A DNA stretch of 64,000 nucleotides, taken from Patescibacteria group bacterium. Its GTDB lineage: Bacteria; Patescibacteriota; Microgenomatia; UBA8517. The DNA lies in the NCBI GenBank assembly GCA_038061225.1, contig JBBTZT010000005.1, forward strand, positions 19,646-83,645, in the 5' to 3' direction. The translations under genes were made by a program, and so were the position numbers. The notes beneath the pieces are model-generated. The model was given only the letters and a program-made list of their open reading frames with translations. It did no database searches and had not been told where the DNA came from. Each line of letters opens with the position of its first letter. Position 1 is the stretch's first letter. Shown in pieces: positions 2,658 to 53,714 of this stretch.

Positions 2658-2843
2658 TTATTCACCTGAACCACCTGAACCTTCACAACCGCAGCTTGCT
2701 GCACAATCAGACTCACAACCACAACTTTGTGCACAATCCGCTGTACATGCTGAATCACAGTCAGAAGTTTCCATTTTGATGCTTTTTGTTTCCATCATTG
2801 GCTTAGCGTCTCTCAAATCTCTATTTTTGTTTATTAATTTCAA
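2658..2843 (-). CDS. RiPP precursor peptide, Cys/Ser-rich core (LAP/TOMM-like)
   Basis: The 74-codon ORF in the track (2658..2882) begins at a TTG. The better start is the TTG at 2843..2841, which is preceded by a strong SD (AAGGAGGTGA, 8-nt spacer). The resulting 61-aa product is MKLINKNRDLRDAKPMMETKSIKMETSDCDSACTADCAQSCGCESDCAASCGCEGSGGSGE. It has nine Cys at regular xxxC spacing with adjacent Ser/Thr. It sits immediately upstream of YcaO. Confidence 0.6.
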   Translation of the reverse strand: MKLINKNRDLRDAKPMMETKSIKMETSDCDSACTADCAQSCGCESDCAASCGCEGSGGSGE

Positions 2844-2887
2844 TTTAATCACCTCCTTAGTAAATTCGTAAGAATAATACAAGCAGA

Positions 2888-2915
2888 ACTATATCAGAAA
2901 TGATCAAATAGTCAA
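2888..2915 (-). promoter_or_regulatory. Candidate sigma70-type promoter for the precursor-YcaO-SagB operon
   Basis: On the minus strand there is TTGACT (plus 2915..2910), a 16-nt spacer and TATAGT (plus 2893..2888). This lies ~45 nt upstream of the SD and TTG start. Confidence 0.4.
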
Positions 2916-2987
2916 TAACTTATGGGGCTTATGGGTATATTTAAAATTGGCTTGTCAAGTTGTAAACAAGTTTGGCACTTTAACTCG

Positions 2988-3047
2988 TCAGAACTGACTC
3001 GTTAAATTGTAAATTGGCAGGATTATTGCAATGACTAAAAATCCAAC
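2988..3047. repeat. Direct repeat copy A: duplicate of the pilC 3' terminus (candidate attL/attR-type island boundary)
   Basis: It matches 7833..7892 over ~60 nt (30+14+8+5 identical, 3 mismatches). All 3 mismatches are synonymous in the pilC frame. The copy still encodes ...VGFLVIAIILPIYNLTSQF* preceded by a stop. Confidence 0.7.
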
Positions 3048-3066
3048 ACACTATCATGCAATTTGG

Positions 3067-4404
3067 CTATTTTATTTGTAAAGCTTCAATAAAATTCTTA
3101 TCAAATTTATCAAATCTCTCCGTTAGTATAGGATCTAGATAGAAAAATGGCTGGTGTGAGTAATTTGAATTAAAAATTTTTCCATAAACAGGTAGATAAC
3201 CCTTTGTCGTTAACATAATTCTAAATCCCACATTTATATCAAAGTTCTTACCGACATACCCGCTTCCGTGGAATGATGATAGTTTTGTAGATCTATTGAT
3301 AGGATATAAAGTTAAACGATCTATAATATTATGCATGTCGCATCTAATAGAATCTGGATATATATATTCTACTGGTTTAGTTAATCTTCCAGACACAATT
3401 TCAGAAATATAATTTATAGTAAAACTCCATGTATCATGGACGATCTTTTGCCTAAGTATATTAATTTTTTCACTAGAATTTTTAAAGTTGAATATATCTT
3501 CAAAAACATGGAGAGTTAAATTATCTTTATCTTTTGAAGATTTAATTTCATGTACATAAATGCAATAAATTAAAGACATATAGAGGGCAATAAATTTATT
3601 TGCTAATTCTTTATCTTTAGCTGAACTCAAAATCTTCGAAATGTTTAAGAGAGGATCTTTAAGATTGATATACTTACCAAACATCTTTGTATAATTTGCC
3701 CTTGTTTTTAAAAAGATTTTTCTTTTTTCAAATTTAATTTCTTCTGGAAGAAATTTGTCTAAAGTCTTAACATAATCTACAAGCTCGACATATCCTTCTA
3801 AATTTAAATGTTTGGAAAATAATAACAAAGTCGTTTGATATTTATTAATTATTTCATCAGGAAAATTTAAAATCTGTTTAAAACGATACCCATCCATTAA
3901 AACAATAAATTTAGCTCCAACTGGATAAATATATTTTACAGCCAAACATATTTCCTTTAATCTTGCCAAGGAAGCCAAATCTGCTAGGTCTGGTAACAAA
4001 TCTGCACTCTTTAATAAATTTGGTATCTTGCAAGGAAATAAAGAGATAGTGAGTCGAATTGGTAAATTTTCTTTTATTCTATCAGAAACTTTTTGGTACA
4101 AAATATCAAAACCACTACTTTCTCTAGTACCACCCCTATATCTTCTTGCCATAAGTACTTCTACAACCATCCGATTGAGATCAGTTTTCTTACCATTCCT
4201 AAATTTCTTTTTAACTCTCTCTGCTATTTTAGACGCGTTTTTCTCTATCAATTGATTTATTTTTTTTGAAAGTAGCAGAAATAATTCATCATTCATTGTA
4301 AAATTAGTGTTTTTTCTTGATACAAATTTACTTGTTTTAAGATTAATAGATCTTAATGACGAACAGCTGATTAAAATTTCATTTTTGCTAAAAATATTTT
4401 TCAT
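3067..4404 (-). CDS. Hypothetical protein, 445 aa (island cargo)
   Basis: The ORF is intact and overlaps the upstream gene's stop by 4 nt (ATGA). Motifs FPCKIPN ... YPVGAKFIVLMDGYRF weakly recall the Dit1/PvcA isonitrile-synthase family. This is from memory only and unverified. Confidence 0.35.
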   Translation of the reverse strand: MKNIFSKNEILISCSSLRSINLKTSKFVSRKNTNFTMNDELFLLLSKKINQLIEKNASKIAERVKKKFRNGKKTDLNRMVVEVLMARRYRGGTRESSGFDILYQKVSDRIKENLPIRLTISLFPCKIPNLLKSADLLPDLADLASLARLKEICLAVKYIYPVGAKFIVLMDGYRFKQILNFPDEIINKYQTTLLLFSKHLNLEGYVELVDYVKTLDKFLPEEIKFEKRKIFLKTRANYTKMFGKYINLKDPLLNISKILSSAKDKELANKFIALYMSLIYCIYVHEIKSSKDKDNLTLHVFEDIFNFKNSSEKINILRQKIVHDTWSFTINYISEIVSGRLTKPVEYIYPDSIRCDMHNIIDRLTLYPINRSTKLSSFHGSGYVGKNFDINVGFRIMLTTKGYLPVYGKIFNSNYSHQPFFYLDPILTERFDKFDKNFIEALQIK

Positions 4405-5630
4405 ATATTTTGTAAATCAATAATGTTTCCTGGCAACTCTTTATCTACAATTTTTTGAATTGTTTGCCAATAATCTTTTATTTCCGATAATTCCTTTTCT
4501 GTAGCTGGTGTTTTGTCACGTCCGAATACAATAGGTACGTCTTTATTACATAAAGTTTTGGATGAACAAGCGGTGGTGATGACTCTAGGGATAATATCCA
4601 ACCTAAATTCAGGAGATTCTTTTGAAAAGGAAAAGTTAAATGCTCCAGAGAAACCTTTTGATATCCAAATCTGGTTGGCTTTAGTTATTATTCCCTTTTC
4701 TCTTCCTGGAGCAGCTGCCACTAAATTATTTGCAAGATATTTAAGTAATACGACAGAATCTCTTGATATAAAGTTTTGTTTATTCAAATAGGTACTTAAT
4801 CTTTTAACACGATCTTTTCTTGCTCTTGGAATATATCTTTGAGTAGTAAAATCTAATGATTTATCGGTGAAGACTTCCTGAATTTTGTTATACTCGCATC
4901 TCATATTGGTATATAAATTTACTAATCCTGGGAATAAACTTTTAAAATTCTTGGTGTCTGAAAAATATATAGATGTAAAACCAAAGTTTTCTTCCAACCT
5001 ACTGAAACCTTGATTTGGAAATAAATTCTTTTTTTCCTTCAGAGATATTATAAAATCATGGAAGATTTTTGAAAATGGCTCGATAAGAGATAATCTATCA
5101 AACCAATTTAGTTCACTCCATGATATTGACGTTAGATTTTTATTCAACACAGAATCTTCAACTAAATAAATATGGGAGTGTAATCTTTTTAAAGTATGGT
5201 TTCCCAAAAGCGAAACATCTTCAGAATTGAAACCTAGTGTTATTTGGACGTTTTTATTCCCAAAATCTAAAAGTTTGTTCACCATAACTTGATTGACAAT
5301 AAGTAATTTCTCACCCTCAACTTCAGTAAGATCAGTGATCGAAGAAACATCTCTGTCTGGCTCGCCAATGAAAATGTTCACATCCCTCAAACCGAATGAA
5401 TAGCTTTTTGGTGTAATTAAGTAATCTAAGTGTGATCCTTCAAATTTAAGAGCAGCAAGAGGAAGAATTCTTTTTCTAAACTTCAACCAATCTACTGAGT
5501 TAGCTTCTGTATTATTCAACGGTGCCATAAAATATAAAGGTCGATGAATTTTTCCAACATTCATCGATTTTGCTTTTAACATTTGGTCAAAAATAGGGTT
5601 TTCTATCATGTTATTTAATAGTAAGAACAT
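4401..5630 (-). CDS. Hypothetical protein, 409 aa (island cargo)
   Basis: The ORF is intact with no recognisable catalytic motif. It is translationally coupled to its neighbours. Confidence 0.35.
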   Translation of the reverse strand: MFLLLNNMIENPIFDQMLKAKSMNVGKIHRPLYFMAPLNNTEANSVDWLKFRKRILPLAALKFEGSHLDYLITPKSYSFGLRDVNIFIGEPDRDVSSITDLTEVEGEKLLIVNQVMVNKLLDFGNKNVQITLGFNSEDVSLLGNHTLKRLHSHIYLVEDSVLNKNLTSISWSELNWFDRLSLIEPFSKIFHDFIISLKEKKNLFPNQGFSRLEENFGFTSIYFSDTKNFKSLFPGLVNLYTNMRCEYNKIQEVFTDKSLDFTTQRYIPRARKDRVKRLSTYLNKQNFISRDSVVLLKYLANNLVAAAPGREKGIITKANQIWISKGFSGAFNFSFSKESPEFRLDIIPRVITTACSSKTLCNKDVPIVFGRDKTPATEKELSEIKDYWQTIQKIVDKELPGNIIDLQNI

Positions 5631-6663
5631 CTAACTGGTCAAGACGCGTTTTTATTCTAGAGAATAAATATTTTATATATTTATTCTCATTAAAATTGGA
5701 ATCTGCAAATTTCCTTGATTCCAACTTTTGGGGTGTGAAACTCCAAAGAAGAATACCTATCCAATTCAATGCCTGTAGAGGAACAAAGATTTTAACTCTA
5801 TCTATAATATCTTTTGGTAACATTGACTCACTTCGATATTTATTTATAAAATATCTTATATTTTCATTAGATAGACCCCAAGATCCTTCATGTGTTACAA
5901 AATTTGCAACTATTTTAGAAGGGTCGTCCCATCCAAAATACTCAAAATCTATGAAACATACATCTCCATTATCTTTAAAAATTGCATTATGAGGTCCAAA
6001 ATCTACTGGGCTTAATCTCATTAAAGAGTCATCTATTTCTTCGGAGAAACTATCACCGGACATTCTTTTTAGATTTTTTATTTGACCGTTAATTCGTTCC
6101 AAAACTTTGGTTCCCTTTGAAAAATTAACAATATCTGGACTTGTCTTAGGTGTCTTAATTAATTCTTCAAATTTTTTGATCTTTTCCAAGATTACATTTG
6201 AAAACTGTTCAGCTGATTGTGTAGAAAGAACAGCATTTGGAAAATTCTGTTTTGTTTCAATAGGTTTAATGTTTTGTATTTTAAAAATAAATGACAGGAA
6301 TCTGTCTAAATCCTTTTTAACTAATTCTCTTCCAGATTTCACTATACCTGTTTCAAAAGAGTAAACCGCATAGCCTTTATCCTCATCTTTAAAAAAAGGT
6401 ACGGGTAATCTTGTTTCTCCAAGGCTTCTTAAATATTTAAAAGCTGAAAATTCTCTATTCAATCTATTTCTATCATCTTTAAAATATCGTTTAAATAAGT
6501 AACTTTTTCCGTTCTCCGAACTTACTTTAAAAATTTTATTATTAAAACCACCATCCAAGCTTTCAAACTCATCAATCGATATTCCAAAATGTTTTGCTAT
6601 TACACCTTTTATAATAGAAGAATCTTCTTGTGTTTTGTTTTCTTTCATTTTTGTTTTACTCAT
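5611..6663 (-). CDS. Aminoglycoside-phosphotransferase/choline-kinase-like kinase (APH fold)
   Basis: 350 aa. It has the Brenner-type catalytic/Mg-binding region HNAIFKDNGDVCFIDFEYFGWDDP (HxN...IDFE) typical of the APH/ChoK/CotS family. Confidence 0.6.
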   Translation of the reverse strand: MSKTKMKENKTQEDSSIIKGVIAKHFGISIDEFESLDGGFNNKIFKVSSENGKSYLFKRYFKDDRNRLNREFSAFKYLRSLGETRLPVPFFKDEDKGYAVYSFETGIVKSGRELVKKDLDRFLSFIFKIQNIKPIETKQNFPNAVLSTQSAEQFSNVILEKIKKFEELIKTPKTSPDIVNFSKGTKVLERINGQIKNLKRMSGDSFSEEIDDSLMRLSPVDFGPHNAIFKDNGDVCFIDFEYFGWDDPSKIVANFVTHEGSWGLSNENIRYFINKYRSESMLPKDIIDRVKIFVPLQALNWIGILLWSFTPQKLESRKFADSNFNENKYIKYLFSRIKTRLDQLDVLTIK

Positions 6664-7354
6664 TTATCAAGTTAATATCGTCAATTGTGCACTGGTCTAC
6701 CTTCCATTTTGTAACATCTGATAAATTTTTTTTACCTTCAAACCCTTTAAAGATATGGGTATGTACTAATAGTTCGGATTTGTGTAAATTGTTTACCAAA
6801 TCAGCATTACCAAATCTATTTAAAACTGAAAAGGGTACGTGCGCAACATTTGCTTGTGACATTTTAGTCCAACCGATAATTTTGTTCGTAACTAACCCTT
6901 GAGACATCCAGTCCTGAAAAATAAAATTATGCATAATCAATCCTAATTTTAATTTAGGAAAAATATCCCTGATATATGGTAAAAGTGGAACTTCACTTGT
7001 AGTTAATTCTATATCTGCTTTAGAATATTGTTTTAGTTGATCCTTGAGAATCGGAAGTATCTCAGTATTCATAGCTTTAATCTCTATTTCAATCCTTCCT
7101 TTGTTGTGAATTTTGCTAAGAATTTCGTCTAGTCCTGAATAATCAGACTCTATCGAAGAGATATAATTGTGTACTATCATAATTTTTCCATTTCGAAGTT
7201 GAATATCCATTTCAATTCCATCAGCCCCATTCAAAAAGGCTGAATTGAAAGCGTCAAGAGTATTTTCAAGAAAATGAACAGTATCCCCTCGATGGGCAAT
7301 AAGAAGAGGTTTATACCTAAAATTTTCAAACTTTTCTTTTGGAGCTAGCGACAT
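6656..7354 (-). CDS. Glycerophosphodiester phosphodiesterase family protein
   Basis: It has LIAHRGDT...ENTLDAFNSAFLNGADGIEMDIQL, the GDPD/UgpQ-type active-site region. Confidence 0.65.
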   Translation of the reverse strand: MSLAPKEKFENFRYKPLLIAHRGDTVHFLENTLDAFNSAFLNGADGIEMDIQLRNGKIMIVHNYISSIESDYSGLDEILSKIHNKGRIEIEIKAMNTEILPILKDQLKQYSKADIELTTSEVPLLPYIRDIFPKLKLGLIMHNFIFQDWMSQGLVTNKIIGWTKMSQANVAHVPFSVLNRFGNADLVNNLHKSELLVHTHIFKGFEGKKNLSDVTKWKVDQCTIDDINLINE

Positions 7355-7411
7355 TTACCTATAGTATCACTATTAAGACAAAATGGCAAAAAAACAGCTT
7401 CTTTAATATTT

Positions 7412-7831
7412 TTAGATAATTAAGCTTTTGTATTTAGATAGTCTAAGTTTTACAGCACTGGTAAGCTTTAGTTTTGTTAGTTCTTTCAAATTGAAGAATT
7501 TTATTGCTTGACCTTCGTCCTGTCCTAACTTAAATAATTTTACTTCATCATTGTCGACCGTTGACAAAAATGTATATGAATATTTTCCGTCATCCTTTTT
7601 AAATTCTCCAATATATTGAAGCTCTTTGGGTACATGTGTAATTTCTTCTTTAAGTTCTCTTTTTATTGCTTGGAGTGGAGTTTCATTTTCATTCATCCGC
7701 CCTCCTGGGAGATGCCAATAATTGGGATATGGAATATCTTTTTTGTCGTCTCTATGAAATAGAAGCAACTTATTTTTATAAGTTATTAAAGCGAAAACTG
7801 AATTACTTGCAATCCAATGGTTAATATTCAT
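7412..7831 (-). CDS. NUDIX hydrolase
   Basis: It has the Nudix box GGRMNENETPLQAIKRELKEEI (GX5EX7REUXEEXGU). Confidence 0.7.
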   Translation of the reverse strand: MNINHWIASNSVFALITYKNKLLLFHRDDKKDIPYPNYWHLPGGRMNENETPLQAIKRELKEEITHVPKELQYIGEFKKDDGKYSYTFLSTVDNDEVKLFKLGQDEGQAIKFFNLKELTKLKLTSAVKLRLSKYKSLII

Positions 7832-7832
7832 A

Positions 7833-7892
7833 TCAGAACTGACTCGTTAAATTGTAAATTGGAAGGATTATTGCAATAACTAAAAAGCCAAC
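7833..7892. repeat. Direct repeat copy B = genuine 3' end of pilC
   Basis: It is identical to 2988..3047 apart from 3 synonymous mismatches. It encodes the PilC C-terminus ...VGFLVIAIILPIYNLTSQF*. Confidence 0.7.
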
Positions 7893-9038
7893 CCCTAACC
7901 CCAAAAGAACCATCACAATAGGCTCAATTGCTGCAGTTAGCGTTTTAACTTTTTGATCTGATTCAACTTCAAAAACATGACTTACTTTAGTTAAAACTTC
8001 TTCCATTTTTCCAGTTTCTTCACCAACAGCAATCATTTGAGAAAGAATAAATGGAAAAGCATCGGGGTGTTTTGCAAAAGCATAGGAGACAGGAAAACCT
8101 TTTTCAACTTGCAGAGAAACATCTTTTAAAGCATTACTTATCACAGCATTACTCATAACCTCTGATGTTATATTTAAACTTTCTAAAATTGATACTCCTG
8201 CACCAGACATTAGAGATAGTGTACTAGTTAGCTCAGTTAATAAAACTTGTTTTTGCAGTGGTCCAATAATTGGAATTTTAAATTGAAGTTCGTCTGTTTT
8301 TAATTTTCCTGCAATAGTTTTTCTATATGCTTTAAAACCATAAAATCCACCCACAAAAAAAGCAACTGTTACAGGCCAAAATTTAATAACAGCATCAGAT
8401 ATTCCCATTAATATTCTAGTTGGTAGTGGAAGTTCTGCATTAAATTCTGAATAAAGTGAGGTAAGCCTTGGAACAACAAAAATCATCATTAAAAAGGCAA
8501 CTATTACCATGCCGGTAACAATTATCATAGGATAAATCATGGCTCCTTTAACTTTTCCTTTAAATTCTTGTTGCTTTTCCATATCATCAGCAAGACGAAC
8601 TAAAACAGTATCCAAAACTCCACCAACTTCACCTGACTTGACTAAGGCAATGTAAGTTGGAGAAAAAACATTAGGATGTTTGATAAAAGCTTTTGAAACG
8701 GATTCTCCTCCTTCAATGTCAGCTAATATTTGGGAAACAACCTTACCCATTGACCCATTTGCTTGAGATTTTAAAATAATAAGTGACTCAGTAATTGGTA
8801 AACCAGCATTTACCATTGTTGCAAATTGACGGGTAAAAGTAACAACATCTGACGGGGTAATTCTATTTTTTAAATTTTTAATAAAAACAATTGGATTTTC
8901 AAAAACTTGTTTTATAGATAGTACTAAAAGTCCTTTTCCATGAACTAACCTTGCAGCATTAATTTCATCCACAGCTTCAACTTCTCCAGTTACCAATTTT
9001 CCAACTTTATTCTTTGCTTTGTAGTTGAATCGTTTCAT
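7833..9038 (-). CDS. pilC: Type IV pilus assembly platform protein PilC (GspF family)
   Basis: 401 aa with duplicated GspF domains and 3 TM segments. It follows pilT and ends with TGA. Confidence 0.85.
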   Translation of the reverse strand: MKRFNYKAKNKVGKLVTGEVEAVDEINAARLVHGKGLLVLSIKQVFENPIVFIKNLKNRITPSDVVTFTRQFATMVNAGLPITESLIILKSQANGSMGKVVSQILADIEGGESVSKAFIKHPNVFSPTYIALVKSGEVGGVLDTVLVRLADDMEKQQEFKGKVKGAMIYPMIIVTGMVIVAFLMMIFVVPRLTSLYSEFNAELPLPTRILMGISDAVIKFWPVTVAFFVGGFYGFKAYRKTIAGKLKTDELQFKIPIIGPLQKQVLLTELTSTLSLMSGAGVSILESLNITSEVMSNAVISNALKDVSLQVEKGFPVSYAFAKHPDAFPFILSQMIAVGEETGKMEEVLTKVSHVFEVESDQKVKTLTAAIEPIVMVLLGLGVGFLVIAIILPIYNLTSQF

Positions 9039-9042
9039 TTTC

Positions 9043-10104
9043 TTAGAGACTACCTTTGATTAATCTATTTAATTCATCAGGCCGTACTGTCCATTCTTGT
9101 GCAGTCTCAATAGTAATTTTATTTGTTTTAACAAGACTAGAAAGCGAATGTTCAAGCGTTGACATACCAGCCTCTAGCGAAGTTTGAATAATTGAATCAA
9201 TTTGGTGCGATTTACCTTCTCTAATTGCAGTTTTTATGGCTGTTGTTCCAAGCATTACTTCATGAGCAACGAGGCGTCCACCAGCGCTTGCTTTTATTAA
9301 TCTTTGGGAAAATACAGCCTCTAAGATCGATGATAGTTGTAATCTTATCTGGTTCTGTTGGTTTTCAGGAAAAACATCAACAATTCTATCAACTGTTTGG
9401 GAAGCAGAATTAGTATGCAGTGTCCCAAAAACTAAATGCCCTGTTTCTGCAATTGTCATTGCCGCTGAGATAGTCTCAAAGTCTCTCATTTCACCAACCA
9501 AGACAACATCAGGATCTTCGCGTAGGACTGATCTTAAAGCAACCTGCCATGAATGGGTATCAGATCTCATCTCACGCTGGGAAATGATTGATTTAATTGG
9601 TCTGAATACAAATTCTATTGGGTCTTCAATGGTCACAATATGAGATGCTCTGTTTTTATTTATTTCATTTATTATGGCAGCAAGTGTGGTTGATTTTCCA
9701 TGTCCAGTTGGCCCTGTAACAAGCACCAATCCTTGCCTTAAATCAGTAAAACTTTTGGCTATAGGAGGTAAACCTAACGAATCAATTTCTGGAATTTCCA
9801 AAGGAATCCTTCTAAATGAAGCCGCCATTGATCCTTTTTGGGTATAGGCATTCACTCTAAATCTTGCCTTTTCGCTAAATGATAATGAAAAATCAATTTC
9901 TTTATTTACGCTAAATCTTTCAAGTTGGTCTTTTGTTAATATTTGTTTTAATCCTTCATTTATAATATCGGGGGTTAAAATAGCATTGTCTGCAATTGAT
10001 TTTAAGTCGCCATCTAATCTAACCATAGGAGGAACACCCGCCACCAAATGCAAGTCGGATGCTTTTAAATCAATTGTTTGTTCCAGTAAGTTTTTTGCGT
10101 CCAT
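9043..10104 (-). CDS. pilT: Twitching motility ATPase PilT
   Basis: 353 aa. It has the Walker A motif GPTGHGKSTT and is PilT/PilU-like throughout. Confidence 0.85.
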   Translation of the reverse strand: MDAKNLLEQTIDLKASDLHLVAGVPPMVRLDGDLKSIADNAILTPDIINEGLKQILTKDQLERFSVNKEIDFSLSFSEKARFRVNAYTQKGSMAASFRRIPLEIPEIDSLGLPPIAKSFTDLRQGLVLVTGPTGHGKSTTLAAIINEINKNRASHIVTIEDPIEFVFRPIKSIISQREMRSDTHSWQVALRSVLREDPDVVLVGEMRDFETISAAMTIAETGHLVFGTLHTNSASQTVDRIVDVFPENQQNQIRLQLSSILEAVFSQRLIKASAGGRLVAHEVMLGTTAIKTAIREGKSHQIDSIIQTSLEAGMSTLEHSLSSLVKTNKITIETAQEWTVRPDELNRLIKGSL

Positions 10105-10105
10105 C

Positions 10106-11821
10106 TTATTCTTGTGCTACACGCAATATTTCTTCAATCGTTGTTTCACCAGCTAAAACTTTCAAATAACCGTCCTGTTTTAATGTTATCATACCTTCTT
10201 CCTTTGCTTTAGTTTCAATTTCTGATGCAGGAGATCTTTCAAGAATCATTTTACCAATAGAATCGCTAACTGGCAAAACTTCAAAAATACCAATTCTCCC
10301 ATAATAGCCTGAATTGCCACAAGCCTGACAACCTTTACCTCTTGAGATTTTTGATAATGCGTCTTTTGGCCACAGCGGCCCGAGGACGCTTTTCATTTCT
10401 TCAATGACTTTTGGATCAAGTTCATAATTTTCTCTACAATCTTCATGAATTTTTCTGGCAACTCTTTGAGCCATAATTGCAGTCATTGAAGAAGTCAAAA
10501 GATAAGGCTCGGCTCCCATGTCAAGCATACGAGGCAAAGCTCCGGCAGCATTATTGGTATGAAGTGTAGAAAAAACCAAATGCCCGGTTAAAGATGCTTG
10601 TATGGCAAGATCTGCAGTTTCTTGATCTCTAATTTCTCCCACCAAGATAATATTTGGATCCTGTCTTAAAAATGATTTAAGTCCTGAAGCAAAAGTAAGA
10701 CCTACTGCGGGATTAATTTGAACTTGATTAACTCCAACCATTTTATATTCAATAGGATCTTCCAAAGTAACAATATTTACCTTAGGAGTATTTATTTTAC
10801 TTATGATTGAATAAAGAGTTGTAGTTTTACCTGACCCTGTTGGGCCACAAATCATAATAATTCCATGAGGCCGGAGTATTGCATCTTGTAAATTTTTTAA
10901 AGCTTTTCCACGAAGACCAAGAGTAGGAAGATCGGGGACACCGCCTGTTTTTTTAAGAAGACGCATAACAATCTTTTCACCCCACGTTGTAGGAAGTGAA
11001 GAAACACGAAGGTCAGTGTCTTCACCTGCCGCTTTAAAATTAAATCTACCATCTTGAGGAATTCTTTTTTCATCAATTTTCATTCCCGAGAGAATCTTTA
11101 TTCTAGAAGTTAATGATTCATGCAATTCTTTTGGAATAGTTAATTTTTCAACTAAAATTCCATCTATTCTATATCTAACCCTGGTGGACCTTTCTTCTGG
11201 TTCAATATGAATGTCACTAGACCTTGATTTTACTGCAAATTCTAAAATATGAGATACTATTTCTGAAATTTTTTCTTCTTTAATAAAACCAATTTTTAAA
11301 TTATCTTTGATATTTGATTTTTTCTCAGGTGCAACATCTTTTAGGGCTTCTGTAACTTCTTGAGAAAGTGATGTCTGATATCTTGTTGTTATAACATCCC
11401 CCAATTTATCTTCTTCAACAGCTACAGGTTTAACTCTAAGGCCTGTTTTTCTTTCTACAAACTCAATAGCAGTTAAATCAAGCGGGTCTGCCATGGCAAG
11501 GGTAATTGTTTTTGCAAGTTTATCTATTGCAAGTGGAAAAATATTAAACTTAGAAGAAATGTCTTGCGCTAAAACAGACATGGCTTCAGGAGATGATGGG
11601 GAAGTAGCGAGGTCTGCATAAGGAATGTTATAAAGTGTTGCTTTGGCGCGAACGAGATCTGAATTTGAGACTAAATTTTGTTTTTTAATAATTTCTTCTT
11701 GAGTGGTGCCATACTGCACCTCAGCCATTTTAATCTGTTTGGCACGTTCTTCAGTTAAAGCACCCATCGAAATTAAAATATCTGAAAGACTATTTCCTGT
11801 AGCAATGGCAGTATTGGGCAT
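10106..11821 (-). CDS. pilB: Type IV pilus assembly ATPase PilB (GspE family)
   Basis: 571 aa. It has a GspE N-domain plus Walker A GPTGSGKTTTLYS and a tetracysteine motif. Confidence 0.85.
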   Translation of the reverse strand: MPNTAIATGNSLSDILISMGALTEERAKQIKMAEVQYGTTQEEIIKKQNLVSNSDLVRAKATLYNIPYADLATSPSSPEAMSVLAQDISSKFNIFPLAIDKLAKTITLAMADPLDLTAIEFVERKTGLRVKPVAVEEDKLGDVITTRYQTSLSQEVTEALKDVAPEKKSNIKDNLKIGFIKEEKISEIVSHILEFAVKSRSSDIHIEPEERSTRVRYRIDGILVEKLTIPKELHESLTSRIKILSGMKIDEKRIPQDGRFNFKAAGEDTDLRVSSLPTTWGEKIVMRLLKKTGGVPDLPTLGLRGKALKNLQDAILRPHGIIMICGPTGSGKTTTLYSIISKINTPKVNIVTLEDPIEYKMVGVNQVQINPAVGLTFASGLKSFLRQDPNIILVGEIRDQETADLAIQASLTGHLVFSTLHTNNAAGALPRMLDMGAEPYLLTSSMTAIMAQRVARKIHEDCRENYELDPKVIEEMKSVLGPLWPKDALSKISRGKGCQACGNSGYYGRIGIFEVLPVSDSIGKMILERSPASEIETKAKEEGMITLKQDGYLKVLAGETTIEEILRVAQE

Positions 11822-22467: not shown

Positions 22468-23199
22468 CTACATACTATTTTTAATATATTCCTTAATATT
22501 TTGTCCTTCTTTTGGAACCAATATATAAGCACCCGCAGAACTTTTACCCTGAGTTAATACATTCTGATCGGATACTCCCAAATATGAGATGGCATAATCC
22601 AATGGATTTCCAATATCAGTTAATATTTCATTTACTTTATTTAAATCCAAATCCGTATTAACAAAGCTAAATACACTAGATGTATCTTTAATATTTGCTT
22701 TTTGTAAAATTGCTTTTAATACTTCAAACTGGCGCATACTTCTTCCAAAATCTCCATCACCATGCCTACTTCTAACATATTTTAAAGATTCTTCACCATT
22801 CATCTGAGTTAATCCCACACTATATGAGATGGTTTCATATCTACAAGTAAATTGTTTTTCAAGTTCAAAACCTGAATATTTTACATGTAAACTGACAACT
22901 TCATCAGCCGACTTTCCACAAAGTTCATTTTCAAGTCCACGAACTGGATAGAAATTATCTATATATTCTTTTCCAACATCTACTGCAATCCCTTCCATTG
23001 AATCAATCATTTTAACAAAAGAATTAAAATCAACAGATATAGAGTGAGAGATAGGCAAACCAGTAACCCCTGTTAGCGCATCTTTTAATGATGGATCAGC
23101 GTTTATTTTATGTCCTGAAAACCAAAAATCACGAGGGAAAGAAATTATATTTGCTTTCTTGTCAGTTACATTAACATGAACAATAATTATAGCGTCCAT
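22468..23199 (-). CDS. LytR-CpsA-Psr (LCP) family domain protein, apparently 5'-truncated
   Basis: The first ATG gives MDAIIIVHV. The LCP-like sequence (NILLTGYGGSGHSGGGL) continues upstream in frame with no ATG/GTG/TTG until an in-frame TAG. No TM anchor is encoded. Confidence 0.55.
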   Translation of the reverse strand: MDAIIIVHVNVTDKKANIISFPRDFWFSGHKINADPSLKDALTGVTGLPISHSISVDFNSFVKMIDSMEGIAVDVGKEYIDNFYPVRGLENELCGKSADEVVSLHVKYSGFELEKQFTCRYETISYSVGLTQMNGEESLKYVRSRHGDGDFGRSMRQFEVLKAILQKANIKDTSSVFSFVNTDLDLNKVNEILTDIGNPLDYAISYLGVSDQNVLTQGKSSAGAYILVPKEGQNIKEYIKNSM

Positions 23200-23318
23200 T
23201 AGTCCTCCTCCAGAATGACCAGACCCACCATAACCTGTTAGTAATATATTAAAAGTTTTTGCACCTTTAGTGGTTTCTCTTTCTTCTTCAACAAATATAT
23301 GCTATTTTATTATTCATC

Positions 23319-24275
23319 TTATTTTCCTCTTCCATGAAAGATTTCGTGTATATCATGGAGTTGCTTGTTTGTAACATGGGTATAAATTTGTGTAGTTGAT
23401 ATATTCTTATGCCCCAACATCTCTTGAATACTTCTTAAATCAGCACCTGCATTAAGCAAATCTGAGGCGAAACTGTGACGGATTGTGTGAGGAGTAGCTT
23501 CAATTGGAAGTTTGACTTTCCTAACATATTTTTTTAATAATCTTTCTATCGATCGGGGAGTGAGACGCATTTTTTCATCCTCCACCGTTGGATCAATTTT
23601 ACCTTTGTGACGTATAAAGAGTGGTTTAAAATGATCTTTTCTTTCATTTAGATATCTTTTCAAATAATCAGATGACCTAGAGGATAGAAAAACCACTCTT
23701 GCTCTTCCACCTTTACCTGTTATACCAAATTCTCGTCTATCAAAATCAATTTTTTCAATATTAAGGCTTGTCAGCTCAGATACACGAAGACCTGTGGAAA
23801 ACAAAACTTCTAAGATTGCTTTATCACGAAGACTCATGAGTCTGAGTGACAAGCTTTGCTTATCACTACCTATTGTTGGAGCATTCAATAGTCTATCTAC
23901 TTGTTCACCATTTAAAAACTTGATTTGTCTGTCAGGAATTTTGGGTAGTTCAATTTTATCAGGTGCCATAACTTGATAATCATTTCTAATTAACCATTTT
24001 AAAAAAGATCGTAGCGCAATTGCGTGATATCCTTGAGTTTTTTTGGAAAGTCCAAGTTTAGCTAGATATGCCCTAAAGTCATGAACAATATCTTGGTTTA
24101 TAGACTTTATATCTGTGTGTTTGTGATTTGTAATTAACCACTCAAGAAGTCGATTTAAGTAATGTCTATAATTTCGAATTGTAAGAGGGGAGCATCCTTT
24201 TTCAACAGACAAATAATCTAAAAATTCATCAGTTTTTTTTGATATATCACTATTTTTTCCTTGAGCAGAATTCAT
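23319..24275 (-). CDS. xerC: Tyrosine recombinase XerC/XerD family
   Basis: 318 aa with an N-terminal core-binding domain and the C-terminal catalytic motif RHSFASDLLNAGADLRSIQEMLGHKNISTTQIYTH. Confidence 0.85.
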   Translation of the reverse strand: MNSAQGKNSDISKKTDEFLDYLSVEKGCSPLTIRNYRHYLNRLLEWLITNHKHTDIKSINQDIVHDFRAYLAKLGLSKKTQGYHAIALRSFLKWLIRNDYQVMAPDKIELPKIPDRQIKFLNGEQVDRLLNAPTIGSDKQSLSLRLMSLRDKAILEVLFSTGLRVSELTSLNIEKIDFDRREFGITGKGGRARVVFLSSRSSDYLKRYLNERKDHFKPLFIRHKGKIDPTVEDEKMRLTPRSIERLLKKYVRKVKLPIEATPHTIRHSFASDLLNAGADLRSIQEMLGHKNISTTQIYTHVTNKQLHDIHEIFHGRGK

Positions 24276-32678: not shown

Positions 32679-32762
32679 GGTGCGGTGCTGAAATTGGTAT
32701 ACAGTCAGGTCTCAAAAACCTGTGGTAGCAATACCGTGAGGGTTCGACCCCCTCCCGCACCA
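32679..32762 (+). tRNA. tRNA-Leu (anticodon CAA)
   Basis: Hand fold: acceptor GGTGCGG/CCGCACC, discriminator A. The anticodon stem is CAGGT/ACCTG with loop CTCAAAA. There is a long 15-nt variable arm, a T-arm GAGGG-TTCGACC-CCCTC, and no encoded CCA. Confidence 0.8.
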
Positions 32763-32768
32763 CAAAAA

Positions 32769-50340: not shown

Positions 50341-51429
50341 TCACTTGATCATATTATCAAGGAAGCCTGAAATTGAACCTGCTGAAATCAAACCTCTAAT
50401 ATCTTTAATTGTAATTGCTAAAATAACAAGTAATAATATTGCCATTCCTACAGTATGGACAATCGCCTCAAATTTAGGAGCTATCTTTTTACCAAATATA
50501 GCTTCTATTACAATAAACAAAAGTCTTCCCCCATCAAGAGCTGGAAATGGAATAATATTTAAAATAGCAAGATTAACAGAAATAATTCCAACAAGATTTA
50601 AAAGTGAAAGAATTCCAGTTTTAGCTACCTCTGTTGTAATTGCAAAAACTCCAACTGGACCTGATACATCTTTTGGACTTCTACCTTGAAATAATTCTGT
50701 AAAGATATTAACAAAACCATAAATAACTGTCTTACCCCAATATAATGCTTCTTTGGTTCCATAATACGCTCCATAAAATGGTCTTTGCCAAACAGGAGGA
50801 AAATAAGTTTCTATATCAGTTATTGCAACACCTAATGGACCTTCACCTGCAGGTGGACTTGTACGAGGAATGATTGTTACTTTTCTGTTTTGAAGATCAA
50901 GTACAGTTTTTTTACCTTTTTTAGTATCAATTTGAGCTATAAACTCAGACACATTTGAAACACTAACTCCATCAACAGAAATAATTTTATCTCCAACAAT
51001 AATCTGAGCAATCTGAGCTGGTGAATTAGTAGCAACATTTAAAACTTTTACTTCTTTTAACTCTCTTGGAATTCCAGTAAATGAATACACAATTCCAAAC
51101 AAAACAATGGCGAGTAAGAAATTCATAACTACCCCCGCAATTATTACCGCTGTTTTTACCCAAAGTGATTTACCCAAGAATGCTAGTTTAGGTTTAGTCA
51201 CTCCCTCCTCGTTCATTTCACCATGAAGCCTAACAAAACCTCCAAATGGAAGTGCATTAATTGAATAAATTGTGCCTCCTACTTTCTTTCCAAAAATCCG
51301 AGGTGGCAAACCAAAACCAAATTCTTCAACCCAAATGCCATTTTTCTTTGCAACAACAAAATGACCCAATTCATGAACTATAACCAAAAGAGAAAGAACT
51401 GCGAAAAAAATTAAAATTGACCAAATCAT
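50341..51429 (-). CDS. rseP: RIP metalloprotease RseP (site-2 protease) with PDZ
   Basis: It has HELGHF (HExxH) in TM1 and a PDZ domain. Confidence 0.8.
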   Translation of the reverse strand: MIWSILIFFAVLSLLVIVHELGHFVVAKKNGIWVEEFGFGLPPRIFGKKVGGTIYSINALPFGGFVRLHGEMNEEGVTKPKLAFLGKSLWVKTAVIIAGVVMNFLLAIVLFGIVYSFTGIPRELKEVKVLNVATNSPAQIAQIIVGDKIISVDGVSVSNVSEFIAQIDTKKGKKTVLDLQNRKVTIIPRTSPPAGEGPLGVAITDIETYFPPVWQRPFYGAYYGTKEALYWGKTVIYGFVNIFTELFQGRSPKDVSGPVGVFAITTEVAKTGILSLLNLVGIISVNLAILNIIPFPALDGGRLLFIVIEAIFGKKIAPKFEAIVHTVGMAILLLVILAITIKDIRGLISAGSISGFLDNMIK

Positions 51430-51983
51430 ATTGTTAGAAGCTCTTTCTTTTTATTTTCTCCAAGTGTTTCTATTTTCCCAATATAAAGATCTGTTAATTC
51501 TTGAAGTTTTTTCTCTGTATCTTTTTTTTCATCTTCTGTAATTTCCTTTGCCTCAAAGCCTTTTTTAATATCATGCATTTCATCAGCCCTAATTTGTCTT
51601 ATCATTACTTTTCCATTTTCAAGTTTTTGGGATAATAATTTTACATATTTTTCCCTATCTTCTGTAGTAAGTTGGGGAAATACAATTCTAATTACTTCTC
51701 CATCGATTGATGGATTCATACCGATATTTGCTTCCAGTATTCCTTTTCTAATATCTCCAATTATTGATTTATCCCAAGGAGAAATAACAAGTGTTTGAGT
51801 ATCAGGAGCTGTAATACTTGCAAGTTCCAAGACGCGAAGCGGCTGTGTTCCACCATAAGCAGGACATATAACATTTTCAATCAAACTTGGAGTTGCTCGA
51901 CCACTTCTAATAGCTGAAATATCAGAAACAACAGAATCCACCACTTTTTGCATTTTTGAAGAAATTAAATTTGTATCCATCAC
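51426..51983 (-). CDS. frr: Ribosome recycling factor
   Basis: It is RRF-like throughout and sits in the rpsB-tsf-frr order. Confidence 0.85.
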   Translation of the reverse strand: MMDTNLISSKMQKVVDSVVSDISAIRSGRATPSLIENVICPAYGGTQPLRVLELASITAPDTQTLVISPWDKSIIGDIRKGILEANIGMNPSIDGEVIRIVFPQLTTEDREKYVKLLSQKLENGKVMIRQIRADEMHDIKKGFEAKEITEDEKKDTEKKLQELTDLYIGKIETLGENKKKELLTI

Positions 51984-52444
51984 ATACCTAGTTCAACACG
52001 AACTACTCTACCCAGTTTAATATTTTCACCAGTTTTTGCAATAACTTCTTTAATTAAATCTGTAATTTTTTTGTTTGGGTCTTTAATAAAATCTTGATTT
52101 TCTATATTTTCTTCACCCATTGAAGCAACTTGTAATGCAATATCTTTTCCTAATTGTTCAAATAATTCATTTCGGGAAACAAAATCAGTTTCACTAAAAA
52201 GTTCAACAACTGAAACTATTTTATTATTATGGTGCGAATATGAAAAAACCTTTCCTTGTCCTGTTTGACGAGATTCTCTTTTTGCAACTTTTTCTAATCC
52301 TTCTTTTTTAAGAATTTGAACTGCTTTTTTTTCGCTTATCTGCGCAGGCAGGTCTCCAAACTGTTCTAAAATTTGCTTCACTCGCATAACCCCAGCTCCC
52401 GTTTCTTCTCTAACTTTTTTGATTAAATCAGCAGTTATCTTCAT
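51980..52444 (-). CDS. tsf: Elongation factor Ts (short form)
   Basis: It has an N-terminal UBA-like LIKKVREETGAGVMRVKQIL, at 154 aa. Confidence 0.8.
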   Translation of the reverse strand: MKITADLIKKVREETGAGVMRVKQILEQFGDLPAQISEKKAVQILKKEGLEKVAKRESRQTGQGKVFSYSHHNNKIVSVVELFSETDFVSRNELFEQLGKDIALQVASMGEENIENQDFIKDPNKKITDLIKEVIAKTGENIKLGRVVRVELGM

Positions 52445-53166
52445 GATTTTGATTTTGCTTGTCTCGCCGGAGTCTTTTTGACAGAGGCGGATCCTTCAAG
52501 AATTGCTCCCTTTATATATTCTAAAACTAATTCTAATGCTTTTGTAGCATCGTCATTCATTGGAATTGGGAAATCCACCATATTTGGATCCGAGTTAGTA
52601 TCAACAATACCAACTATTGGTATATTTTTTCTATTTGCCTCTCTTATAGCAGTAGCCTCTTTTCTAATATCAACTACTATTAAAAGATCAGGCATTTTTT
52701 TAAGATTTGTAATACCTCCAAAAAACCTTTCTAATCTATCTTTTTCTCTTTCCAAAAGAAGTCTTTCTTTCTTTGTATATTTTGCATAATATCCTGACTC
52801 AAATTTAGCTTTCATATCAGCTAGTAAATCTATTGATTTTTTGATTTGGGCAAAATTAGTAATAGTTCCACCTAGCCATCTATCAGTTACAACTGATATG
52901 TTCGTATCTTGAGCAATTTCTAAGGCTTTATCTTTTGCTTGCTTTTTAGTAGCAAGAAGAAGAATTGTTTTATTTTCTTTAATAGTTTTTGTAATTTCAA
53001 AAAGAGCAATTTCAAGTGCTTCTTTAGTTTTTACAAGATCAAAAATATGGACGCCATCTTGTTCACCATATACAAAATCTTTAACTTTTGGATTCCAACG
53101 TTTAACTTGGTGCCCAAAGTGAGCACCTGATTCTAGTAAGTCTGTAAGTGATATCTTAACTGCCAT
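52441..53166 (-). CDS. rpsB: Ribosomal protein S2
   Basis: It has LLESGAHFGHQVKRWNPK, the S2 signature. Confidence 0.9.
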   Translation of the reverse strand: MAVKISLTDLLESGAHFGHQVKRWNPKVKDFVYGEQDGVHIFDLVKTKEALEIALFEITKTIKENKTILLLATKKQAKDKALEIAQDTNISVVTDRWLGGTITNFAQIKKSIDLLADMKAKFESGYYAKYTKKERLLLEREKDRLERFFGGITNLKKMPDLLIVVDIRKEATAIREANRKNIPIVGIVDTNSDPNMVDFPIPMNDDATKALELVLEYIKGAILEGSASVKKTPARQAKSKS

Positions 53167-53177
53167 AGTAAGGTATT

Positions 53178-53714
53178 TTAATTTAAAGATTGAAGTTTAA
53201 CAAGAGCTTGTTTGTTTATTTTTATATTTTCTAAAGCTGATTTACTTGCAGCTCTGGCTAAATGAATTGCGGTTTTGGCATCACTTAGTGTATTTTTGTT
53301 ACCAATTTTCGAGACGTGATAGGCAAGTTTTTCTAGAATTTGTGACAATTTTCTCACTTCCATTGGAACAGCAATTGCATATTTTAATGACTTTCTAATT
53401 GCAGTTTTGCCTGCCTGCGCAGGCAGGTTCTTTGCAGATTTATAAGCCACCATTACCTTATCAAATGCTTTTTTGTCGTCTTCAACTAATTTAGTTAGCT
53501 TCTTTTTTAGATCAACTGCATCTTTATGAATCTTAATAATATCTTTTTGCACTTTTTCATAACCCTTTTTATCAATTGTTAAATTACAAACCATTTCAAT
53601 AAGACTTGCTGCAAATGAACCAGACAAAGCAGCAATTACTCCACCTCCAGGAGTTGGATTTTTGCTAGATAGATCCTTTTGAAATTTTTCTAATGTTTGT
53701 GAGTTAATACTCAT
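53178..53714 (-). CDS. Formiminotetrahydrofolate cyclodeaminase / methenyl-THF cyclohydrolase-like protein (FTCD C-domain)
   Basis: It has PTPGGGVIAALSGSFAASLIEMV, the cyclodeaminase signature. Confidence 0.65.
   Translation of the reverse strand: MSINSQTLEKFQKDLSSKNPTPGGGVIAALSGSFAASLIEMVCNLTIDKKGYEKVQKDIIKIHKDAVDLKKKLTKLVEDDKKAFDKVMVAYKSAKNLPAQAGKTAIRKSLKYAIAVPMEVRKLSQILEKLAYHVSKIGNKNTLSDAKTAIHLARAASKSALENIKINKQALVKLQSLN

Follow-up and report, generated by a model that had tools for sequence, protein, structure and literature searches.

A cassette of five genes is found at positions 3067-7831, on the minus strand, of the stretch of DNA analysed here (the window, that is, 64,000 nucleotides, nt, of contig JBBTZT010000005.1 of the Patescibacteria assembly GCA_038061225.1), and may be interpreted, with a probability a little short of even, as a mobile accessory operon for the metabolism of nucleotide-linked small molecules, most likely nucleotide sugars. 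The core of this operon would be formed by a homologue of the isonitrile synthase PvcA and a nucleotidyltransferase. In the loci available for comparison (designated here by L numbers), the PvcA-like enzyme, the nucleotidyltransferase and, usually, a Nudix hydrolase are constant, while the glycerophosphodiester phosphodiesterase (GDPD), the kinase, the HAD, histidine or HD phosphatases, and the dehydratases of nucleoside diphosphate (NDP) sugars are variable. The functions of the cassette are united by the transfer of nucleotidyl groups to or from the phosphate of a sugar or alcohol, together with isonitrile-synthase chemistry, rather than by a phosphorylation/dephosphorylation switch. A preliminary description of this DNA had proposed a module for the phosphorylation of small molecules or peptides, or for resistance, as opposed to housekeeping. 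The conserved accessory unit stands, but neither resistance nor a phosphorylation/dephosphorylation switch fits the data.

Organization and conservation of the cassette

The five open reading frames (ORFs) listed in the preliminary description are all present on the minus strand, at the coordinates first given for them. In the direction of transcription, they encode a Nudix hydrolase (7412-7831, 139 amino acids, aa), a GDPD (6656-7354, 232 aa), an APH-fold kinase (5611-6663, 350 aa as the longest ORF, although probably 345 aa, with a start at 6648), a HIT/GalT-like putative nucleotidyltransferase or phosphorylase (4401-5630, a 409-aa ORF, probably 402 aa, with a start at 5609), and a PvcA/Dit1-type protein of the isonitrile-synthase family (3067-4404, 445 aa). 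The three phospho-ester enzymes recognized at the outset, that is, the Nudix, the GDPD and the kinase, all score above the Pfam gathering thresholds. The overlaps between stop and start codons described at the same time were retained only in part. The ATGA overlap of the 409-aa and 445-aa genes is real, and is kept in L001, L004, L007 and L015, whereas the overlaps of 20 nt and 8 nt appear only when the longest ORFs are taken, and the Nudix and GDPD genes do not overlap at all, being 57 nt apart. The homologues of the 409-aa protein all begin with MxENP, at the equivalent of its Met8 (giving 402 aa), and those of the kinase have 345 aa, so the likely spacings are 1 nt (kinase/402-aa gene) and 7 nt (GDPD/kinase), rather than overlaps.

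The conservation of the operon can be observed directly. The order Nudix-GDPD-kinase-HIT-like-PvcA-like is the same in L001/L002/L003 (84% amino-acid identity) and in L004 (69-72%), and L013 carries a fragment of the cassette with 83% identity. The flanks of these copies differ, and contain no pil or YcaO/SagB genes. The arrangement is not due to chance, as the same five functions are found in this order in L001/L002/L003 and L004, next to unrelated flanks.

A gene for an HD-domain protein (orthologues of 42-67% identity) lies in a convergent orientation immediately after the cluster in L001/L002 (8605-9303 in L001), L004 (5866-6456), L013 (after position 863, minus strand) and L019 (4363-4995), the last of these being a locus of different composition. 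This protein, which has no homologue in the 64-kb window, is a possible sixth member of the system.

The PvcA-like protein

The 445-aa protein matches the Pfam family DIT1_PvcA (PF05141) with 67.8 bits against a cutoff of 26.4 (E 1.4e-18), in a match restricted to positions 1-124 of the 273 of the model. The isonitrile-synthase chains of the PDB were recovered with an E-value of approximately 1e-12 by the single sequence, and of 8e-21 with a profile. In the structural comparison, the protein displays the full PvcA fold (PDB 3e59, 9dh4/9dhm), so that its tentative likening to Dit1/PvcA in the preliminary description proved to be well founded, and the NCBI label already places it in the isonitrile synthase family. 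The similarity of sequence to PvcA is confined to the N-terminal half, however, and the C-terminal half can be aligned by fold only. In an alignment (A5) that includes a 313-aa isocyanide synthase (ICS) of Streptomyces and an ICS of Bacillus, the residues P115, P124, K126, N129, K132, D139, Y160, G163, D171, G172, Y189, R318, H358 and H379 are invariant.

The protein scores 49.1 bits with the NCBIfam PvcA equivalog (NF045653), far below the cutoff of 600, which indicates that it is not an orthologue of PvcA. In comparison with the canonical enzymes of 310-330 aa, it has an additional N-terminal segment of approximately 90 aa, the start of which is strongly conserved (MKNIFxKxEVLISCSSLR), and a helical insert of approximately 60 aa. 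The scans of GTDB and JGI for this PvcA-like family returned only two and five loci, respectively. A "long" protein of the isonitrile-synthase family (412 aa) is also encoded by the Bacillus thuringiensis plasmid pLM1 (L027; NZ_CP024772.1, 203723-204961), and aligns with residues 89-422 of the window protein at 23.5% identity. Its gene is followed by a HAD-hydrolase-like fragment, with insertion sequence elements around it and a cry8 toxin gene adjoining.

The HIT/GalT-like protein

The 409-aa protein has no match in Pfam, NCBIfam or PADLOC, and a word-indexed search of 5.8 billion clusters recovered only five relatives; with profile A2, a further search of this kind contributed no more than three usable proteins. 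When the GTDB species genomes were searched with alignment A1, 43 patterns were matched, none of which was a true relative. By an exhaustive profile search, the family reached 71 representatives, nearly all of approximately 400 aa.

The preliminary description had recognized no motif in this protein, which does in fact contain a HIT-type motif, GFNPxDxSPGHHSIxRLHSHIY in the family as a whole. In 36 sequences (402-aa numbering), H144 shows no variation, and the conservation of H146 is at least 90%. These residues align with H96 and H98 of Fhit, which places H144 on the nucleotidylated His96, while the first histidine of the HIT triad is replaced by an arginine (R-L-H-S-H-I-Y). A single-sequence search of the PDB with the 409-aa protein yielded nothing useful. 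The matches of the family profile to PDB sequences are marginal (E 0.4-5), although HIT proteins (Fhit, a HIT-domain protein and Ap4A phosphorylase) account for five of the seven, with the motif as the exact site of the alignment. The AlphaFold model is of medium quality (predicted local distance difference test, pLDDT, 69.8; predicted template modelling score, pTM, 0.76) and has the two-lobed HIT fold, and its top match in Foldseek is a GalT-type uridylyltransferase (probability 0.96). On the basis of the alignment of the motif on HIT proteins, the AlphaFold model and the independent Foldseek match, the 402-aa protein may be assigned, with moderate confidence, to the GalT branch of HIT enzymes, as a putative nucleotidyltransferase, phosphorylase or hydrolase acting via a nucleotidyl-histidine. 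The idea that the protein is an orphan was abandoned.

Partner genes of the PvcA-like and HIT-like families

The partner genes were surveyed in approximately 10 PvcA-like loci, with the partner rule being applied where both flanks were visible. In every such type of locus, a nucleotidyltransferase either adjoins the PvcA-like gene or lies no more than two genes away. These partners are of four apparently unrelated kinds, two of which are recognized by motif only. One is the 402/390-aa HIT-like protein of the cassette and L007/L008 (hhalign probability 100%). Another is a 311-aa protein in L015, where the HIT motif AGGAGVNHMHIHLIP is the only recognizable feature, HIT being the sole Pfam match (E 0.16), and the gene overlaps the PvcA-like gene by 4 nt. 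The MurU-like NTP_transferases of L009/L010, L018 and L019 represent a further kind; their best NCBIfam match is MurU (E 1e-14 to 1e-17), far below the cutoff and limited to the nucleotide-binding half. The remaining kind, of 360 aa, carries the HxGH-type motifs YPGSFNPFPHRGH and ISGTTIRS, and is found in L006 (11879-12964), L012 (932-2065), L014 and L020-22, with CTP_transf_like as its sole Pfam match (E 0.024). The gene of this 360-aa protein is always paired with a NudE-like Nudix and is convergent with a PvcA-like gene; upstream, there is a CYTH gene. The comparison by hhalign of the HIT-like profile with the 360-aa, 311-aa and 410-aa neighbours was not significant, with only the 311-aa motif being lined up, and single-sequence searches of the PDB with the 311-aa and 360-aa proteins found nothing useful.

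The PvcA-like gene and its nucleotidyltransferase share an ATGA-type coupling of 4 nt in L001, L004, L007, L015 and L019. For the 402-aa and 445-aa proteins, the conservation of this coupling suggests that the two may form a complex. A GDPD recurs with the PvcA-like gene in L009/L010 and L019, and in the latter (2833-4359), a 508-aa protein, the gene of which shares 4 nt with the end of the PvcA-like one, is a fusion of a MurU-like NTP_transferase and a GDPD. This locus also carries an adenylyltransferase resembling RfaE domain II, and a Nudix. A true dTDP-glucose 4,6-dehydratase (RmlB; 466 bits against a cutoff of 365) lies directly downstream of the PvcA-like gene in L015 and L017, while L007 is a polysaccharide locus, with glycosyltransferases, PMT_2, a short-chain dehydrogenase/reductase (SDR) and a flippase. 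The loci that bear an NTP_transferase have no kinase. Among the called genes of L001-L010, L018-L022 and the window, there is no PvcB/IsnB-type Fe/2-oxoglutarate oxygenase or P450.

Outside the cassette, the HIT-like gene adjoins a Nudix gene in L005, L023, L024 and L025/L026. Its further neighbours include a dTDP-glucose 4,6-dehydratase (427 bits against 365), another SDR and a NADAR protein, and, in L005, the HIT-like/Nudix pair is accompanied by a PseC/ArnB-like aminotransferase and a formyltransferase.

This pattern of partners is a direct observation. As non-orthologous proteins replace one another across the loci for nucleotidyl transfer, this appears to be a required function, and the pattern in turn suggests that the pathway links a PvcA-type condensation, in which an amine reacts with a keto-sugar phosphate, to a nucleotide-activated intermediate that is probably a sugar.

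The Nudix hydrolase, the phosphodiesterase and the kinase

The Nudix protein matches the Pfam family NUDIX with 62.8 bits against a cutoff of 21.1 (E 4.4e-17). Its Nudix box (GX5EX7REUXEEXGU) is intact as GRMNENETPLQAIKRELKEEITH, apart from its penultimate position, where G is changed to T. The protein corresponds to residues 189-320 of a 322-aa HAD-Nudix fusion in L001, with 63% identity to the C-terminal half of this fusion (BLASTP), and a non-orthologous Nudix occupies the equivalent position in L004.

A consensus scan of the 57-nt spacer between the Nudix and GDPD genes found a promoter-like element on the minus strand (7361-7389; TTGCCA-17 nt-TG-n-TACTAT). The -35-like and extended -10 blocks (TTGnnA-17-TGnTACTAT) show no change between the window, L001/L002 and L004, in contrast to the remainder of the spacer, which diverges (the spacers compared are L001 4267-4317 and L004 1528-1578). 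The -10 hexamer ends 6 nt ahead of the ATG of the GDPD gene, a distance which implies that the four genes downstream may plausibly be transcribed as a leaderless unit from this spacer.

The 232-aa protein is predicted to be a divergent cytoplasmic phosphodiesterase of the GDPD family. It matches the Pfam GDPD model with 43.3 bits against a cutoff of 23.6 (E 6.2e-11), in a match that covers only the N-terminal 44 positions of the model, and GDPD chains of the PDB are recovered with an E-value of 2e-9. The motifs HRG, ENT, GADGIEMD, VHN and IEIEIK can be read in the translation, with the catalytic set of His, Arg, Glu and Asp being present, while the C-terminal half is divergent.

The kinase matches the Pfam family APH with 37.4 bits against a cutoff of 23.2 (E 3.1e-9), and Choline_kinase (PF01633) with 27.4 bits, just below the gathering cutoff of 29 (E 2.6e-6). 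The catalytic motifs VDFGPHN (D-x4-N) and IDFEY are present in the translation. The best NCBIfam matches are CotS-type kinases (E 3.5e-8); neither a resistance-enzyme model nor AmgK was matched in this database, and a single-sequence search of the PDB found no match at E 0.01, whether to aminoglycoside or macrolide kinases or otherwise. Among 72,556 plasmids, the kinase has a single relative (23% identity, E 2e-18), which lies between pseB/pseC and glycan-modifying genes.

Insertion scar and mobility

The scar left by the insertion of the cassette can be read in the DNA as a direct repeat of 60 nt, detected by a repeat search and local alignment. The upstream copy (7833-7892, minus strand) comprises the last 19 codons and the stop codon of the intact pilC gene. 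The downstream copy (2988-3047, minus strand) is an orphan duplicate of the 3' end of pilC, and lies 19 nt past the stop codon of the PvcA-like gene. The two copies are identical at 57 of their 60 bases. The cassette is thus bracketed by the intact pilC, the stop codon of which is followed after 1 nt by the Nudix gene, and by the orphan copy of its 3' end. The gene of a precursor peptide of the thiazole/oxazole-modified microcin (TOMM) type lies 105 nt beyond the orphan copy, within a total spacer of 184 nt between this gene and the 445-aa ORF. The simplest reading is that a segment of 4.8 kb was inserted between pilC and the TOMM genes; of the HAD-Nudix fusion, it would have brought in the Nudix half alone, and the HD gene would have been absent from it. 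No recombinase is encoded within the cassette, the composition of which, in terms of overall and third-codon-position GC content (GC and GC3), does not mark it as foreign.

A second sign of mobility is provided by L006/L020, where another PvcA-like module sits between the genes of the ribosome recycling factor (RRF) and an M50 protease, the same two genes that overlap directly in the window (51426-51429). In the window, the genes of S2, EF-Ts, RRF and the M50 protease are consecutive (50341-53166), with the RRF/M50 overlap being of 4 nt. In L006 (6878-14308) and L020, the same synteny is broken after RRF by genes for CYTH, Maf, PvcA-like, Nudix and 360-aa proteins, and the HIT-like/Nudix/RmlB set of L023 likewise adjoins RRF. 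The region next to RRF may be a hot spot for modules of this type.

Proposed pathway and alternative explanations

The sequence of reactions proposed here, along with the substrates and the fate of the product, is inferred from the features described above. The gene order GDPD, kinase, HIT-like, PvcA-like fits a sequence of release, phosphorylation, nucleotidylation and modification. The GDPD-type phosphodiesterase would cleave a phosphodiester to release the precursor (an alcohol, a sugar or a phospho-compound), and the APH-fold kinase would phosphorylate this precursor. The HIT/GalT-like enzyme would then transfer a nucleoside monophosphate via its invariant histidine, by which the NDP-activated form would be made or exchanged. 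In the known isonitrile synthases, the keto-sugar phosphate is ribulose-5-phosphate. The PvcA-like enzyme of the cassette would condense an amino group from the pathway with the keto group of such a phosphate, or possibly of an NDP-keto-sugar, to yield either an isonitrile or a formamide, the latter being what yeast Dit1 produces. The Nudix hydrolase, which may alternatively regulate the pool, would hydrolyse an NDP-linked by-product or surplus, a step that a HAD, histidine or HD phosphatase may assist in other genomes, and the final product probably decorates an envelope glycan. The presence of the aminotransferase and formyltransferase beside the HIT-like/Nudix pair of L005 hints at a formamido product as a common goal. 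Precedents exist for the logic of release, phosphorylation and nucleotidylation in GlpQ-LicA-LicC (PMC10434233), for that of kinase and nucleotidyltransferase in MupP-AmgK-MurU (PMC5371407), and for a formyl product, rather than an isonitrile, in Dit1 (PMC7345447).

A number of points weigh against this interpretation. The cassette itself contains neither an aminotransferase nor a glycosyltransferase. The Nudix and the nucleotidyltransferase would act in opposition if they shared one compound. The retention of the core of the PvcA-like protein refers to positions that are invariant in the family, and not to assigned catalytic residues. The assignment of the 311-aa and 360-aa proteins as nucleotidyltransferases is based on motifs and sub-threshold Pfam matches (E 0.16 and 0.024), and the loci compared are few, mostly short metagenomic contigs from a few related series of samples, which limits the independence of their contexts.

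The same logic could apply to an amino alcohol (ethanolamine, serine or choline) in place of a sugar, in a head-group route similar to that of the Lic system, which may be regarded as rather unlikely. Here, the GDPD would split a scavenged glycerophospho-amino alcohol, the kinase would phosphorylate the amino alcohol, the HIT-like enzyme would produce the NDP-amino alcohol, and the PvcA-like enzyme would modify the primary amine. Patescibacteria are thought to rely on scavenged lipids. The order of the GDPD, kinase and nucleotidyltransferase parallels that of GlpQ, LicA and LicC, the active-site motifs of the GDPD are intact, L019 has the GDPD-NTP_transferase fusion, and the kinase has both the motif IDFEY...D..ANF..HE and the Choline_kinase match (E 2.6e-6), although this match falls below the Pfam cutoff (27.4 versus 29). 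Neither the cassette nor the scanned ORFs of the window include a LicB permease, a LicC-type transferase or LicD, however, and there are loci with an NTP_transferase and no kinase. The neighbourhoods of the HIT-like and PvcA-like genes (RmlB, PseC-like aminotransferase, MurU-like and RfaE-II-like transferases) favour nucleotide sugars, so this version, while plausible, fits them less well than the version based on a sugar. A distinctly unlikely alternative is the pure salvage or recycling of nucleotide or cell-wall sugars, of the MupP/AmgK/MurU or NahK/GalT type, in which the PvcA-like protein would have a role other than isonitrile formation, such as the binding or isomerization of a sugar phosphate. 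The combination of a phosphatase (the HAD fused to the Nudix in L001), an APH-fold kinase and a nucleotidyltransferase does parallel MupP-AmgK-MurU, MurU is the best-scoring match of the NTP_transferase partners, and reduced biosynthesis in the Patescibacteria would be compatible with salvage. Pure salvage sits poorly with the PvcA-like gene being the most constant member of the loci, and translationally coupled to the nucleotidyltransferase, with the retention of the invariant residues of the isonitrile-synthase family in both halves of its product, and with the lack of an AmgK match for the kinase in NCBIfam.

The membership of the 445-aa protein in the Pfam and NCBI families and its full PvcA fold would also be expected of a canonical aromatic isonitrile pathway (Tyr or Trp plus ribulose-5-phosphate, as in PvcA/IsnA and rhabduscin), in which the other four enzymes would add a glycosyl or phospho decoration. 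This is very unlikely, given the lack of a PvcB/IsnB-type enzyme or P450 in approximately 10 loci, the equivalog score of 49 bits against a cutoff of 600, the restriction of the similarity to PvcA to the N-terminal half, and the large N-terminal extension and insert. A module for antibiotic resistance or detoxification, built around the APH-type kinase and the hydrolases, is hardly credible. The APH-fold match and the mobility of the cassette would suit this idea, but the kinase matches no resistance-enzyme model, nor any aminoglycoside or macrolide kinase of the PDB at E 0.01, its single plasmid relative belongs to a pseB/pseC glycan locus, the partner genes are biosynthetic in type, and PADLOC recovered only a generic Nudix; antibiotic resistance was dropped. 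Scant probability likewise attaches to a set for tailoring the adjacent TOMM peptide, by its phosphorylation, for example. The preliminary description had linked the cassette to these genes, and it does adjoin the precursor, YcaO, SagB and histidine-phosphatase genes in the window. This association is seen in the window only, as there are no YcaO/SagB neighbours in L001-L004 and L013, and peptide tailoring was dropped. The 60-nt remnant of pilC, which separates the cassette from the precursor gene, marks the cassette as an insertion between pilC and the TOMM genes.

Returning to the pathway based on nucleotide sugars, a more specific proposal, considered unlikely at present, is that the PvcA-type clade of the Patescibacteria acts on nucleotide-activated substrates, with the GalT-like HIT family supplying the nucleotide handle. 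In one version, the amine of an NDP-amino sugar or NDP-amino alcohol would be converted to an isonitrile or formamide, providing a folate-independent route of N-formylation, and in the other, an NDP-keto-sugar would replace ribulose-5-phosphate as the carbon donor. If true, this would be the first isonitrile-type chemistry tied to the nucleotide sugars and cell envelope of ultra-small bacteria. To our knowledge, PvcA/IsnA-type isonitrile synthases have been described only in partnership with oxygenases acting on Tyr or Trp. In the present loci, the oxygenase is missing and a nucleotidyltransferase, of several apparently unrelated kinds, is the constant partner, which points to a different class of substrate, and possibly to a new route to formamido or isocyano sugars or head groups. 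The results also offer a first functional handle on a family of approximately 400 aa that has no Pfam model, and indicate that such modules move as cassettes between the housekeeping genes of the Patescibacteria, in which surface chemistry and host dependence are poorly understood. The architecture of the operon, the assignment of the 402-aa family as HIT/GalT-like and the constant coupling to a nucleotidyltransferase in the Patescibacteria appear to be undescribed, and, in the collection of literature searched, there was no paper connecting isonitrile genes and the Patescibacteria.

Genomic surroundings in the window

The genes upstream of the cassette, all on the minus strand, are pilB (10106-11821), pilT (9043-10104) and pilC (7833-9038). 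Downstream, also on the minus strand, lies a TOMM-type set (1-2882) of the class of ribosomally synthesized and post-translationally modified peptides (RiPPs). This set consists of the precursor peptide (2658-2882), a 74-aa ORF with the Cys-rich C-terminus SDCDSACTADCAQSCGCESDCAASCGCEGSGGSGE, YcaO (1306-2649; TIGR03604, 278 bits), the SagB dehydrogenase (526-1302) and, after SagB, a histidine phosphatase (1-519) cut by the edge of the window, which had been named as a member of the neighbouring RiPP operon from the outset, and is confirmed by the Pfam model His_Phos_1 (E 1.4e-24). At the NCBI, the corresponding proteins are MEK7472966-73, with no break in the numbering between YcaO and the isonitrile-synthase gene, which suggests that the TOMM precursor is not annotated there.

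The rest of the window contains gyrB, gyrA, a H+-pyrophosphatase gene, dnaB, genes for aminoacyl-tRNA synthetases and S2/RRF, mreB and the gene of a penicillin-binding protein (PBP), with a GC content of approximately 30% throughout. Other genes of possible relevance to surface glycans or one-carbon chemistry are found at 22468-24275, 53711-54604 and 61115-63052, and comprise a LytR-CpsA-Psr ligase beside a XerC-type integrase, a glutamate formiminotransferase-like protein, and a Wzy_C/O-antigen-ligase-like protein with TPR repeats. ARAGORN found a tRNA-Leu (CAA) at 32679-32763, while the Rfam scan at gathering thresholds recovered no RNA family in the window, tRNA included. PADLOC identified no defence system, its sole match being a generic Nudix.

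Comparison with known systems

The PvcA/IsnA enzymes (PF05141; PDB 3e59, 9dh4/9dhm) are the closest known counterparts of the 445-aa protein, which exceeds the gathering threshold of this family and keeps the FPxK..N and DG motifs, together with the C-terminal histidines of IR.x.H and WH/FH. It differs from these enzymes in being approximately 120 aa longer, with an N-terminal extension, the first 20 residues of which are highly conserved, and a helical insert. The identity is only 18-23%, the score is far below the PvcA equivalog cutoff, and the family of the 445-aa protein, in the Patescibacteria, is paired with a nucleotidyltransferase instead of PvcB/IsnB. Yeast Dit1 is a member of this family that acts with the P450 Dit2 to make the N-formyl-tyrosine of the spore wall, and thereby provides a formamide for a layer of the cell surface, instead of a free isonitrile (PMC7345447), whereas the cassette has no P450 partner, a bacterial host and a nucleotide-linked context.

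The GalT branch of HIT enzymes (the galactose-1-phosphate uridylyltransferase GalT, the ADP-glucose phosphorylase 1z84, the Ap4A phosphorylase Apa2 and CDP-diacylglycerol pyrophosphatase) shares with the 402-aa family the two-lobed fold and the invariance of the histidine aligned with the nucleotidylated histidine of Fhit. The 402-aa family, by contrast, has no significant similarity of sequence (E 0.4) and no Pfam model, the first histidine of the triad is an arginine, and the proteins of approximately 400 aa have extra helical segments.

The combination of Lic-1 and GlpQ (GlpQ, LicA, LicC, LicD) shares the succession of a phosphodiesterase, a kinase of the APH/choline-kinase fold and a nucleotidyltransferase, and Lic-1 produces an NDP-activated head group for surface glycans. 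The cassette, in turn, lacks LicB and LicD, its nucleotidyltransferase is HIT-like rather than LicC-like, its Choline_kinase match is below the cutoff, and it has a PvcA-like enzyme and a Nudix in addition. The recycling of N-acetylmuramic acid (MurNAc) by MupP-AmgK-MurU similarly combines a phosphatase, an anomeric kinase of the APH fold and a sugar-1-phosphate nucleotidyltransferase, and it is with MurU that the partners of the PvcA-like gene score best. The NahK-GalT (LnpB-LnpC) route is one that we take to be a further parallel to the combination found in the cassette. In contrast with these two routes, neither of which has a counterpart to the GDPD or the PvcA-like enzyme, the kinase of the cassette does not match AmgK, and the MurU matches, far below the cutoff, extend over the nucleotide-binding half only.

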